From NCBI GenBank assembly GCA_001769505.1, contig MEOF01000051.1, positions 8,737 to 72,736 of the forward strand: a stretch of 64,000 nt of DNA. The letters run 5' to 3'. This DNA is from Bacteroidetes bacterium GWF2_33_38. GTDB lineage: Bacteria; Bacteroidota; Bacteroidia; Bacteroidales; GWF2-33-38. A model generated the notes under the pieces. It saw only the letters and a list, made by a program, of their open reading frames with translations. It ran no database searches and was not told the origin of the DNA. Made by a program: the position numbers and the translations under genes. This document shows positions 2,747 through 41,436 of the stretch, in pieces; within the stretch, counting starts at the first letter, position 1, and each line of letters starts with the position of its first letter.

Positions 2747-3574
2747 ATGACAAGAACCGAATTATTTGAAAATATTAAGAAAAAGGGTAGCTTTTTATGT
2801 GTAGGTTTAGACTCTAGTTTGGATAAAATTCCTGCATTTTTGAAAAAATACGATGACCCTATTTTTGAATTTAACAAAGCAATTGTTGATGCTACATACG
2901 ATTTAACGATTTCGTATAAGCCAAATTTAGCTTTTTATGAGTCGATGGGGATTAAAGGAATGATAAGTTTAGAAAAAACAGCGAATTATATAAAGAAAAC
3001 ATATCCCGAATTATTTTTAATTGCTGACGCAAAACGTGGTGATATTGGAAATACTTCGAGCATGTATGCAAAAGCGGTGTTCGAACACATGTGTTTTGAT
3101 GCAGTTACCGTTGCTCCATACATGGGAGAAGACTCGGTAAGCCCGTTTTTACAATACAAAGATAAGTGGGTAATTTTATTAGCTTTAACATCAAATAATG
3201 GAGCTTTCGATTTTCAATTTATGGAAGATAAATCAGGAGAAAAACTATTTGAAAAGGTAATTAAAACTTCACAAAAGTGGGCAAATCAAGAAAATATGAT
3301 GTATGTAGTTGGAGCCACAAAGAGTGAAATGCTTACAGATATTCGAAAACTTATTCCAAATCATTTTTTGCTAGTTCCTGGAGTTGGAGCACAGGGAGGA
3401 AGCTTAGAAGAATCAGCAAAGTTTGGAATGAACGATACTTGTGGACTTATTGTAAACTCTTCACGAGGAATTATTTATGCTGATAACACCGAAAAATTTG
3501 CCGAAGTTGCTCGTGAAAAGGCAATTGAAGTTCAATTGGAGATGAAAGATTTGTTGAAAGGGAAAGGTGTTTAG
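2747..3574 (+). CDS. pyrF: Orotidine 5'-phosphate decarboxylase (type 2)
   Basis: 275 aa with the catalytic [10 protein letters not shown] motif. Length is typical of the long ODCase class. Confidence 0.9.
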
Positions 3575-3579
3575 ATACC

Positions 3580-3613
3580 AAACCTCCAAGGCTTAGGAAA
3601 ACCTTGGAGGTTT
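3580..3613. terminator. Long perfect hairpin after pyrF (probable terminator, no T-run)
   Basis: aaacctccaagg / ccttggaggttt form a 12-bp stem with a 10-nt loop (cttaggaaaa). Confidence 0.55.
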
Positions 3614-3618
3614 AAAGA

Positions 3619-3662
3619 ATGAAACTTTAACCTTTTATATGACCGAAAAATTTCTGCAATTT
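3619..3662 (+). repeat. Direct-repeat copy A: duplicate of the DUF2851 gene start region (decoy ATG at 3639)
   Basis: atgaccgaaaaatttctgcaattt (3639-3662) matches 4465-4488 at 21/24 nt. Upstream, atgaaactttaac matches 4439-4451 at 11/13 nt. The decoy ORF 3639-3695 encodes only MTEKFLQFLPLCGVFTAQ. Confidence 0.8.
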
Positions 3663-3664
3663 TT

Positions 3665-3730
3665 GCCTTTGTGTGGTGTTTTCACCGCACAATAAATCTG
3701 TCAAGTGAAAACACATGACAAATGTGAGGC
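3665..3730 (+). repeat. Twin-hairpin element, copy 1
   Basis: GCCT, then hairpin tgtgtggtg-tttt-caccgcaca, then hairpin tgtcaagtg-aaaa-cacatgaca, then AGGC. It is collinear with copy 2 at 10278-10338. Confidence 0.8.
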
Positions 3731-3917
3731 ATATTGCGTTAGATTTAAATTTAAGCGATTTTTTTGATTTTTATTATCTATATAAAATATATTGTGACTT
3801 ATCGTGTATACTTATTCTATTGATTAACAAATCATTGTGCGATTAAAGTTGTTTATCATGTACATGTGAAATTTAAATTAGTATAATAAAATAACTATTT
3901 TTACAGCAAATATTAAT

Positions 3918-4235
3918 ATGAGTAAGATGGAAAAAATATTTAAAAAAAATGAGATTGATTTTTATAAGAATAAGATAAGTATTCAATTTAATGAAGAATC
4001 TGGTTATAATATTTGCAATAAAGATTTGAATAAAAAAGTTATTGTAGAATGTTATTATGATAATAATAGATTTAAAGGAGAAACTGTTCAGCGATTAATG
4101 AAAGGTAATAATCCAAATAGCAAAAGTATTGCTATTTCTTTTGAGCATTCAAAAATTACAGAATTATTAAAAGTTCGTGTAACAATAAAGGAGAAAGAAG
4201 ATTTAGAACGCTTTTTAGAAATAGTACTTTTTTAG
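3918..4235 (+). CDS. Hypothetical protein (orphan, very AT-rich, K/N/E-rich)
   Basis: 105-aa ORF with no motif I recognise. It lies inside the repeat-flanked insertion 3663-4464 and is followed by a hairpin. Confidence 0.45.
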   Translation: MSKMEKIFKKNEIDFYKNKISIQFNEESGYNICNKDLNKKVIVECYYDNNRFKGETVQRLMKGNNPNSKSIAISFEHSKITELLKVRVTIKEKEDLERFLEIVLF

Positions 4236-4262
4236 AATCAATAATAAATTCAAGCTTCCCAA

Positions 4263-4280
4263 CCTCCTTTTCAAAGGAGG
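4263..4280 (+). terminator. Hairpin after the 105-aa ORF
   Basis: cctccttt / aaaggagg are perfect inverted repeats with a minimal loop. Confidence 0.4.
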
Positions 4281-4289
4281 AACTGTAAA

Positions 4290-4306
4290 GTGAAAACACA
4301 AGGCAG
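4290..4306 (+). repeat. Truncated third copy of the twin-hairpin element (3' part only)
   Basis: gtgaaaacac-a-aggcag retains the GTGAAAACAC core and the closing AGGCA of copies 1 and 2. Confidence 0.5.
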
Positions 4307-4412
4307 AAAAAGAAACTTTTGCTTTAGAATGGGAGATGTATACGATAGAGACAAGGAATAATTAACTTTTTATATTTCTATTCCTTTCTAATTACTATTT
4401 GCTAGTAACTAA

Positions 4413-4460
4413 TAACTTTATTTACTTTACAAAACTTTATGAACTTTTAACTTTAAACTT
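4413..4460 (+). repeat. Degenerate ACTTTAC-type short tandem repeat array
   Basis: taactttat ttactttac aaaactttat gaactttta actttaaac. ACTTT cores are spaced 9, 10, 9, 7 and 7 nt. The array ends 5 nt before the ATG at 4465. Confidence 0.7.
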
Positions 4461-4488
4461 CCCTATGACCGAAGATTTTTTGCAATTT
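4439..4488 (+). repeat. Direct-repeat copy B (authentic DUF2851 start region)
   Basis: See copy A. The two repeats bound an 826-bp interval (3639 to 4465). Confidence 0.8.
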
Positions 4489-5733
4489 ATCTGGAAAAAT
4501 AAGCTGTTCAGTCTTGAAAATACAGTTGCAGAAACAGGTGAGAAAATTCAGATAATTTCAGTTGGAGAGCAAAACTTAGATTCTGGTCCCGATTTTTTTA
4601 ATGCCAAAATTAAAATTGACGACACTATTTGGGCAGGAAATGTTGAAGTTCACGTAAATTCATCGGATTGGAATCTTCACAAGCACTCACAAGACAAAGC
4701 ATATGGAAATGTTGTTTTGCATGTTGTTTACAATTATGACAAAGAAATACTGCAATTTAATAACGAAAAGCTAACTACATTTAAGCTCAAATTTGATGAT
4801 ATTTTCTATGAAAAATACGACGAATTTAAAAATGATAAAAGCAGCATACATTGTCGCGACGATTTCAAAAAGGTAGATTCGTTTATTCTCGAAAATTGGA
4901 TTACTCGACTTGTTGTTGAAAGGCTCGAACGTAAAACTGCAGACATAAATTTATTGCTCGAAAAGAGTAAAAACAATTGGGAAGAAATATTTTATCAAGT
5001 TATTGGAAGAAGTTTCGGATTTAAAATCAATAGTTTTCCATTTGAACAATTGACTTCCTCGATTCCGATAAATATATTGGCGAAACACAAAAATAATTTA
5101 TTCCAAATCGAAGCCTTACTTTTTGGTCAAGCTGGCTTTTTAGATGAAGAAATATTGGACGAATATTACTTTAAATTGAAAAAGGAATACCTTTTTTTGA
5201 AAAGCAAGTACAAGTTAACGCCTATTCAGAAGCATTTGTGGCGATTTATGCGAACCCGCCCTGCAAATTTTCCAACCATTAGAATTGCACAATTTGCAAA
5301 ACTAATTTTTCAATCTTCGAAAATATTATCAAAAATAATTGAAACAAATACAACCGATGAATTAAAAACATTTTTCGATGTTGATACTTCCGATTATTGG
5401 AAAACGCATTTTAATTTCGGAAAAGAATCATACGCAAAAGACAAAGCAATTGGCGAATCTTCGGTTAATTCAATAATAATAAATACTATTGTACCTTTTA
5501 TGTTTATTTATGGTAAACATAAAGACGATGAAAGTATTCAACAACGAGCATTATCAATATTAACTGAAATTTTACCCGAAAAAAACGCAATAATTACCGA
5601 ATGGAAACAATCAGGTGCTAAAGTAAAAAATGCATTTTATTCGCAAGCATATATACAATTATCAAACGAATATTGTAGATTTAATAAATGTTTAAACTGT
5701 CAAATAGGAAATAGTATAATTCGAAATGTTTAA
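4465..5733 (+). CDS. DUF2851 family protein
   Basis: The N-terminus MTEDFLQFIWKNKLF matches my memory of the DUF2851 start. I prefer ATG 4465 to the listed TTG 4399, whose extra residues are translated 9-mer repeat. Confidence 0.7.
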   Translation: MTEDFLQFIWKNKLFSLENTVAETGEKIQIISVGEQNLDSGPDFFNAKIKIDDTIWAGNVEVHVNSSDWNLHKHSQDKAYGNVVLHVVYNYDKEILQFNNEKLTTFKLKFDDIFYEKYDEFKNDKSSIHCRDDFKKVDSFILENWITRLVVERLERKTADINLLLEKSKNNWEEIFYQVIGRSFGFKINSFPFEQLTSSIPINILAKHKNNLFQIEALLFGQAGFLDEEILDEYYFKLKKEYLFLKSKYKLTPIQKHLWRFMRTRPANFPTIRIAQFAKLIFQSSKILSKIIETNTTDELKTFFDVDTSDYWKTHFNFGKESYAKDKAIGESSVNSIIINTIVPFMFIYGKHKDDESIQQRALSILTEILPEKNAIITEWKQSGAKVKNAFYSQAYIQLSNEYCRFNKCLNCQIGNSIIRNV

Positions 5734-10212: not shown

Positions 10213-10277
10213 TGGAGAAAATTAAAGTGAAGAGTATAAAAAATTAGAGCGTGTAATCCTATATAAATTTTTCCCTT

Positions 10278-10338
10278 GCCTTTGTGAGGTGTTTTCACCT
10301 CACAATTTTAAAATCAGGTGAAAACACCTGATTTAGGC
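10278..10338. repeat. Twin-hairpin element, copy 2 (probably also terminates kdpE)
   Basis: GCCT, then tgtgaggtg-tttt-cacctcaca, then atcaggtg-aaaa-cacctgat, then AGGC. Both stems are perfect. It lies 26 nt beyond the kdpE stop. Confidence 0.8.
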
Positions 10339-10363
10339 ACAGAAATGTTGCTCTGAAGTTGTA

Positions 10364-41368: not shown

Positions 41369-41431
41369 GAACTTTATAAACTTTACGGACTTTACAAACT
41401 TTAAAAACTTGATAAACTTTACGAACTTACA
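41369..41431 (+). repeat. Seven tandem 9-bp units (gaactttat aaactttac ggactttac aaactttaa aaacttgat aaactttac gaacttaca)
   Basis: Exact 9-nt period. The array ends 5 nt before the nqrB ATG and belongs to the same family as 1548-1601. Confidence 0.9.
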
Positions 41432-41436
41432 AAAAG

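Follow-up and report, generated by a model that had tools for sequence, protein, structure and literature searches.

Two conserved housekeeping genes, pyrF and a gene of the DUF2851 family, are separated by 890 nt in Bacteroidetes bacterium GWF2_33_38 (assembly GCA_001769505.1, contig MEOF01000051.1), and a second, imperfect copy of the DUF2851 gene start lies at the pyrF side of that interval. What is this DNA, and how did it come to lie between the two genes? We addressed the question in a 64,000-nt stretch of the contig, referred to here as the window, which originates from an uncultured Bacteroidales population of aquifer and groundwater metagenomes (PRJNA268031) whose metagenome-assembled genomes include GCA_001769695.1, GCA_001769435.1 and GCA_036849775.1. 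An earlier note on this DNA had proposed a small inserted cassette or the remnant of a site-specific integration. We find that the interval of ~0.8 kb is a real, old and fixed insertion with a target duplication, and apparently an immobile scar as opposed to an active cassette. The locus is a clean, small example of an ORFan gene lodged between two conserved housekeeping genes with the scar still readable, and it leaves the understanding of DUF2851 and pyrF themselves unchanged.

The duplicated gene start and the empty junction

The features on which the comparison depends are the following, with positions counted from the first letter of the window.

2747-3574, + strand: pyrF, orotidine-5'-phosphate decarboxylase (Pfam OMPdecase, E 5e-25), the left native flank, orthologous up to ~3555 to the locus of the closest database relative (L069)
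3619-3662, + strand: left (relic) copy of the DUF2851 leader and first eight codons, delimited by the repeat, chance and homologue comparisons
3639-3695, + strand: 18-codon 'decoy' open reading frame (ORF), MTEKFLQFLPLCGVFTAQ, read from the sequence (codons 3639-3692, stop 3693-3695)
4439-4488, + strand: right (functional, native) copy of the leader and first eight codons (window 4431-4700 is orthologous to L069 1071-1338, 80% identity)
4465-5733, + strand: intact DUF2851 gene (Pfam PF11013, E 5e-147)

The 24-mer at 3639-3662 (ATGACCGAAAAATTTCTGCAATTT) matches the start of the intact gene at 4465-4488 (ATGACCGAAGATTTTTTGCAATTT) at 21 of 24 positions. Repeat finding places the two within an ungapped direct repeat of 40 nt (3623-3662 and 4449-4488, 83% identity, spacing 826 nt), and with one 5-nt indel allowed the similarity extends upstream to 3619 and 4439; the exact blocks that the two copies share are only 8-9 nt long. 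The similarity 5' of the ATG (atgaaactttaac against atgaacttttaac), which the earlier note had counted towards the duplication, is present, but it falls within a 9-nt motif, AACTTTAnn, that recurs as phased arrays in the window and is weak evidence alone. Therefore, only the coding 24-mer is specific evidence for a duplication.

For copies of this 24-mer with three or fewer mismatches, the expected number over both strands of the window is 0.01, and none of 20,000 composition-matched simulated 1-kb upstream regions contained one. Similarly, a scan of 158 kb upstream of 48 other DUF2851 genes, at up to four mismatches, found no duplicate of the gene start at any locus. The left copy codes for M-T-E-K-F-L-Q-F and the DUF2851 N-terminus, M-x-E-D-F-L-Q-F, is nearly invariant in Bacteroidota; the left copy is therefore an unmistakable piece of a DUF2851 start. 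The duplication is real and above chance. The 18-codon ORF that the left copy opens continues into a twin-hairpin element described below, and is probably a non-functional relic, a by-product of the insertion.

The first eight DUF2851 codons are almost unchanging across Bacteroidota at synonymous sites as well (4465-4488; loci L017-L073), an example being ATGACCGAAGATTTTCTGCAATTT in Marinifilum and L035. This constancy suggests a constraint on the 5' end of the gene at the level of nucleotides or RNA.

Comparison of the pyrF-DUF2851 junction in relatives, which the earlier note had put forward as a check, revealed empty sites, and the relatives do not carry the same 826-bp interval. Marinifilum and Labilibaculum genomes keep the order purM-prfA-pyrF-DUF2851-trkA with a pyrF-DUF2851 spacer of ~115 nt, and at L073, where the DUF2851 protein is 58% identical, the spacer is 64 nt. 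The spacer of 890 nt in the window, less one repeat unit of 826 nt, is likewise 64 nt. The short junctions in relatives therefore identify the interval as an insertion relative to the ancestral adjacency, as had been proposed. The closest database relative, L069 (DUF2851 protein 76% identical), aligns to the window up to ~3555 (86.5% nucleotide identity) and resumes at 4431 (80%), with no homology between these points. Upstream of the DUF2851 gene, a 61% relative (L070) has other small ORFs again; given the differing content in L069 and L070, the junction is variable among relatives and the 0.8 kb of the window is lineage-specific.

In L069 the pyrF/DUF2851 junction holds a different AT-rich ORF of 169 aa with a signal-peptide-like N-terminus (556-1102; Logan SRR22387824), and the last pyrF codons are unlike those of the window. 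These observations point to a recurrent insertion or replacement hotspot, and the presence of different cargo at the same junction in the nearest relative makes the locus useful for the study of intergenic insertion hotspots. Kinship among the inserted ORFs of the window, L069 and L070 was considered and rejected on comparison. An origin of the interval as a decayed tandem duplicate of the 5' half of DUF2851 was also rejected, there being no tblastn similarity (best E 8) and a very different GC content.

The right copy and the 34 nt of leader before it (4431-4464) are orthologous to native sequence of L069, and the element therefore did not simply supply a foreign replacement start. Two of the three differences between the 24-mers are private to the left copy, both in codon 4 (GAT to AAA, D to K), a position occupied by D in 45 of the 48 other DUF2851 loci; the third is private to the right copy, the left copy keeping the C found in L069 and Marinifilum. 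Private changes in each copy mean that both have been altered since the duplication, and by its sequence the left copy appears to be evolving without constraint, as a decaying relic. Sixteen contigs from independent assemblies (ENA, NCBI, JGI and Logan records) are 100% identical over the part of 3500-4600 that each covers, which excludes misassembly and indicates that the arrangement is fixed. Because the repeats are only 83% identical and yet polymorphism among the 16 contigs is 0%, the event is old and fixed: old relative to the zero diversity of the population, and dating from after, or from around, the split from L069. The repeats are thus diverged, not a fresh target-site duplication, and the gene copy is intact (DUF2851 profile positions 1-374 of 375), both as the earlier note had described.

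Composition of the insert

Between the two copies of the gene start, the insert comprises the features listed below; a further copy of its repeat, located elsewhere in the window, is included. Covariance scores refer to a model of the twin-hairpin element, R1.

3662-3733, no strand assigned: twin-hairpin copy 1, a Y-shaped three-way junction (R1 74 bits, E 2e-18 on the + strand; 56 bits on the - strand)
3734-3917, no strand assigned: AT-rich spacer (~20% GC) 5' of the orphan ORF, without a recognisable feature in the composition profile, the Rfam search (null) or the promoter-like matches (at chance level)
3918-4235, + strand: ORF105, an orphan ORF of 105 aa (GC 22%, against 33% for the window; 15% GC at third codon positions)
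4263-4280, no strand assigned: hairpin CCTCCTT-TTCA-AAGGAGG 3' of ORF105, identified by folding
4283-4312, no strand assigned: degenerate half-copy of the twin-hairpin (87% identity to 3698-3720; a 3-mismatch match; R1 19.8 bits, E 0.003)
10275-10341, no strand assigned: twin-hairpin copy 2, between convergent genes for a 127-aa ORF and a response regulator (R1 82 bits, E 1e-20; fold z -6.4 and -7.7)

These features show the insert to be a patchwork and not a unit, made up of a dispersed repeat, ORF105 with its hairpin, a half-repeat and an AT-rich spacer; the half-copy is followed by ~100 nt of AT-rich spacer and then by the degenerate AACTTTAnn array of the DUF2851 leader. Each of the sequence statements in the earlier note, on the 24-nt duplicate, the 18-codon ORF, the ORF at 3918-4235, the hairpin and the partial repeat, proved accurate, and its statement that no recombinase is present also stands, no recombinase or transposase domain having been found in or beside the insert, in the ORFs checked across the 64-kb window. 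Its interpretation as one coherent mobile cassette or site-specific integration is not borne out, given the lack of an integrase in those ORFs, of another copy of the cargo in the collections searched, and of a comparable duplication at the 48 DUF2851 loci.

The only insert ORF of substantial length is ORF105, carried on DNA of 23% GC (3734-4282). An ORF as long as this arose in 5 of 5000 composition-matched simulations (p ~0.001), G exceeds C strongly across the region, and a population variant (P0002) has an in-frame deletion of eight residues, KGETVQRL (window 4065-4095, codons 50-59), between two AAAGG direct repeats. Because of its length, its G>C skew and this in-frame variant, ORF105 is probably coding. 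It belongs to no Pfam, NCBIfam or PADLOC family, and neither do the inserted ORFs of the relatives. Among 5.8 billion proteins it matched only its own population, and it was found in none of the viral contigs, phages and plasmids searched. Exhaustive HMMER searches gave only weak repeat matches (28% identity over 46 aa) to two large secreted repeat proteins, and an AlphaFold model from the single sequence had a predicted local distance difference test score of 45. Residues 33-74 (window 4014-4140) are weakly similar to a ~100-aa Cys-containing repeat in P0123 and P0124 (25-34% identity, pairwise E 2e-4), a repeat that occurs in 6-10 units in large secreted proteins with a partial DUF5077 match; ORF105 may be a stray single unit of such a repeat.

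The twin-hairpin consists of an outer stem, TGCCT/AGGCA, and two hairpins with 10-bp stems, GTG-TTTT-CAC and GTG-AAAA-CAC. Copy 1 folds equally well on both strands (z -3.6 and -3.4), and copy 2 differs from it by a compensatory change from T.G to A-T. The half-copy retains the 5' arm of the second hairpin, the loop (GTGAAAACAC at 4290-4299) and the terminal AGGCAGA; compared with a metagenomic copy at locus L151, the 3' arm of the second hairpin and the entire first hairpin are lost. In the 64-kb window, R1 identified only two full copies and one degenerate copy (4265-4313), and the same search of the relatives' loci identified no copies. The relic copy ends where copy 1 begins (left edge at 3660-3662), which puts a dispersed repeat exactly at the breakpoint.

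Outside the window, a 98% identical twin-hairpin lies just 3' of an unrelated gene on a different Rifle contig (L155). An IS4-type DDE transposase gene (PF01609), its sequence including ambiguous bases, lies ~350 nt away from the near-identical element on that contig (556-1649). A metagenome scan for both loop motifs returned more than 118 contigs, ~50 of which have the same architecture with different stems: (T)GCC, a 7-nt stem, GTGTTTTCAC, stem', a spacer, a stem, GTGAAAACAC, stem' and GGC(A), where the conservation of the loop motifs is partly imposed by a search pattern that required GGTG-TTTT-CACC / GGTG-AAAA-CACC. The architecture (loci L076-L193) is widely distributed and is multi-copy in several unrelated metagenomic genomes, high-GC ones included. 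Both sides changed in 17 of 24 stem pairs, against a mean of 9.6 in shuffled data, and 92% of cells are paired, a percentage inflated by the pre-selection of the input for pairing.

The neighbours of 53 twin-hairpins (79 ORFs) are diverse housekeeping genes, and no family has more than two members among the families listed; the 25 families listed, of 101 matched, include no recombinase or transposase and no repetitive extragenic palindrome (REP)-associated tyrosine transposase (Y1 HUH type). The pattern had no match in 2.9 million viral contigs and the element none in Rfam, and literature searches with the hairpin sequence strings returned primers only.

One end of REP elements bears a conserved tag, GTAG or CGTC, that remains unpaired (Di Nocera et al., 2013, PMC3733652). 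Like these elements, and like the bacterial interspersed mosaic elements and REP doublets formed from them, the twin-hairpin has palindromes of ~24-26 nt, arranged as inverted dimers with 5-40-nt spacers and foldable as two hairpins or as one long stem-loop (z -3.4 to -7.7); it also occurs as heterodimers with differing stems, in multiple copies, 3' of ORFs and between convergent ORFs, and at times embedded in longer palindromes or miniature inverted-repeat transposable elements (MITEs) (PMC3733652). In contrast, it has no unpaired GTAG or CGTC tag but ends in (T)GCC...GGC(A), and a loop-proximal motif is common to families from many unrelated metagenomes, a motif that the search required. The twin-hairpin is a member of a dispersed REP-dimer-like repeat and not a cassette-specific end, and it also lies between unrelated housekeeping genes. 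As far as checked, it is a new family-level variant of REP-dimer-like repeats. With its co-varying stems, its multiple copies in unrelated metagenomic genomes and its lack of GTAG/CGTC tags, this repeat is probably of wider interest.

In the Ga0316608 metagenome at least 25 contigs (e.g., L085 3340-3500, L097, L101, L117) have the twin-hairpin core in the middle of a 128-bp MITE, whose terminal inverted repeats are ATACTAAAnCGnCATCAA...TTGATGnCGnTTTAGTAT; in a few cases the copy is cut short and fused to a different repeat, CATAGCCATCAGGTTAATTT. The pair GTGTTTTCAC...GTGAAAACAC may resemble the two halves of parS (TGTTTCAC-GTGAAACA), a likeness that is given no weight here.

Origin of the insertion

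Taken together, the locus is of an already known kind, a small genomic islet that bears an att-like scar. The target-derived direct repeats on either side of the insert, along with the restoration of the gene on one side, are the signature of a single crossover. On balance, and with modest confidence, we favour an origin in which the ancestral junction gained ~0.8 kb together with a target duplication, in the topology of a single-crossover integration, leaving an insert that is now old, fixed and patchwork. The ancestor had pyrF, a short spacer and then the DUF2851 gene. At this junction ~0.8 kb of DNA lodged in this groundwater Bacteroidales lineage, duplicating a target of ~45-50 nt that comprised the end of the leader and the first eight DUF2851 codons; the intact gene still begins with the copy at 4439-4488, and that at 3619-3662 is decaying beside the pyrF hairpin. 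The topology suggests a single reciprocal (Campbell-type) crossover between the 5' end of the gene and a circular DNA with a homologous or att-like segment, for which the agent may have been RecA, using the unusual conservation of the first 24 nt, or else a trans-acting recombinase. Site-specific mobility is unproven.

In Campbell-type insertion-duplication, a circular DNA integrates by a single crossover through short homology, and the homologous segment becomes directly repeated around the insert. The locus has the same topology, and the near-invariant first 24 nt of DUF2851 could serve as homology. It differs in that the homology is very short (~25-50 nt), no donor circle is known, and the leader of the right copy is native.

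Several points weigh against the single-crossover origin. Its mechanism is drawn from the topology only. A simple Campbell integration predicts DNA of the incoming circle 5' of the right copy, where 4431-4464 is native leader; this would imply a donor from a closely related genome, or a different mechanism, for example fill-in at a staggered break or a history in two steps. Moreover, no database relative falls between 76% and 100% identity, and hence no truly recent empty site was seen.

The alternative that survives best, although we consider it unlikely, is that a small cassette integrated site-specifically and left the interval as its remnant. A tyrosine or serine recombinase with its gene elsewhere would have recombined the chromosomal gene start with an attP similar to the start of DUF2851, and the diverged repeats would be attL and attR. 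Integrative-element remnants flanked by attL and attR target and restore a gene end, as do islands at tRNA genes and cis-mobilisable, CIME-type remnants that lack an integrase. As in such remnants, a direct repeat of a gene terminus surrounds compositionally deviant DNA, the gene is intact, and there is an empty site in relatives (64 nt in L073 and ~115 nt in distant ones, the nearest relative having other cargo). The hotspot-like behaviour of the junction agrees with this alternative as well, L069 carrying its other 169-aa ORF with homology resuming at -34, near the repeat start, and L070 further small ORFs 5' of DUF2851. However, the insert is only 0.8 kb long, an integrase is lacking in the ORFs checked, and the searches of protein, viral, phage and plasmid collections yielded no second copy of the cargo. 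The repeats, at 83% identity, share exact blocks of only 8-9 nt, none of the 48 other DUF2851 loci has the upstream duplicate, and the leader of the right copy, which would be the incoming one, is native and not element-borne. A transposon, insertion sequence or MITE is not indicated either: no inverted repeat pairs the ends at 3663 and 4448, and the duplication is ~40-50 nt, not 2-15 bp.

Somewhat less probable again is a two-step local history, in which the leader and eight codons were first duplicated in tandem by slippage or unequal exchange on the AACTTTAnn array, and the REP-like element and ORF105 were inserted later between the copies. Consistent with this, the repeat coincides exactly with one of the tandem 9-mer arrays (4412-4460), which occur elsewhere too, and the duplicated block ends in CAATTTA, a sequence similar to an array unit. 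The flanks on each side of the two copies have a native appearance, and the insert demonstrably combines a dispersed repeat with AT-rich DNA unrelated to it. Against it, several independent events would have had to strike a single junction, no trace of the expected tandem junction is seen where the left copy meets the REP-like element, and the intermediate state is absent from all assemblies examined.

Two further alternatives assign the twin-hairpins themselves a role in recombination. Same-orientation twin-hairpins, two to three per locus, flank accessory-type genes in three examples picked by eye: a DUF4172-Fic/DOC gene (L151 707-2097), a RelE/ParE-type pair with an adjoining HigB toxin (L094 301-1232), and leucine-rich repeat (LRR) and orphan lipoprotein-like ORFs (L144 187-2645). 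By analogy, such groups are reminiscent of cassette arrays. We regard it as very unlikely that an undescribed hairpin-directed recombination system, acting in trans on single-stranded DNA, recognises the twin-hairpin, inserts small accessory gene units beside sites already present and produces long target duplications; if it did, the pyrF/DUF2851 junction would record one such event as a fossil, with further events at the Fic, toxin-antitoxin and LRR loci.

Marginally more doubtful still is an undescribed cassette system directed by hairpins, in which the twin-hairpins would serve as recombination sites in the manner of integron attC and 3698-4283 (585 nt) would be one cassette. A full and a half site do lie in direct orientation around a single small ORF, the metagenomic pairs and triplets flank Fic/DOC, RelE/ParE with HigB, and LRR with orphan ORFs, and the structure is strand-symmetric and co-varying, as expected of a single-stranded DNA substrate. 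Like integron cassettes with attC, the locus has a small single ORF followed by an imperfect palindrome with an outer G-C-C...G-G-C, and some metagenomic sites flank toxin-antitoxin and Fic genes. Unlike them, it has no RYYYAAC/GTTRRRY cores; the ends read GCCTTTG...CA(A/G)AGGC, and the AAC/GTT triplets that define attC are missing in all copies. There is no IntI integrase in the window ORFs checked and no attI with a contiguous array, the three sites in the window being separated by housekeeping genes. In addition, most copies stand singly between housekeeping genes with no recombinase enriched among the neighbours (families listed), the motif is not in the 2.9 million viral contigs, the flanked-gene examples are few and were chosen by eye, and placement 3' of genes and dimer architecture fit ordinary REP elements (PMC3733652).

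Chance resemblance or misassembly has in its favour that the motif in the upstream part of the repeat is frequent in this genome, but it is effectively refuted by the simulated and expected frequencies of the 24-mer, by the conserved DUF2851 N-terminus that the left copy encodes and by the 16 identical contigs.

Neighbouring genes and leader arrays

Two further features lie next to the insert.

3580-3613, no strand assigned: strong hairpin AAACCTCCAAGG...CCTTGGAGGTTT directly 3' of the pyrF stop (15-nt arms, 93% complementary)
4412-4460, + strand: degenerate array of about six 9-nt AACTTTAnn units that forms the DUF2851 leader (Tandem Repeats Finder)

The gene order at the locus is purM (362-1534), prfA (1615-2700), pyrF, the orphan ORF and DUF2851, followed 3' by genes for a TrkA-type channel and then an RmlD-like reductase. 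The hairpin behind pyrF (DNA fold -12.4 kcal/mol, z -5.6) is terminator-like but without a T-tail, and it was missed by the terminator scan because it has no T run. Scans for sigma-70 promoters and intrinsic terminators gave matches at chance level or none, Bacteroidota promoters lying outside the coverage of that tool, and an Rfam scan of 3300-4800 at E<=10 gave noise and no match. In the literature, the name DUF2851 appeared in one paper, on an unrelated subject. One assembly from this population has two ORFs, of 177 and 92 aa, called in place of a single pyrF (L004 6739-7547, ERZ28563708 scaffold_3260), which suggests a frameshift or an assembly error in that record.

Phased tandem arrays of AACTTTAnn with 5-7 units lie directly 5' of the start codons of prfA (1549-1599), DUF2851 (4412-4460) and a gene for an NQR subunit (41370-41433), and an inverted array lies at 2700-2744. 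A scan for the pattern gave 11 matches where 0.5 were expected, and the arrays might perhaps act as promoter or leader elements.

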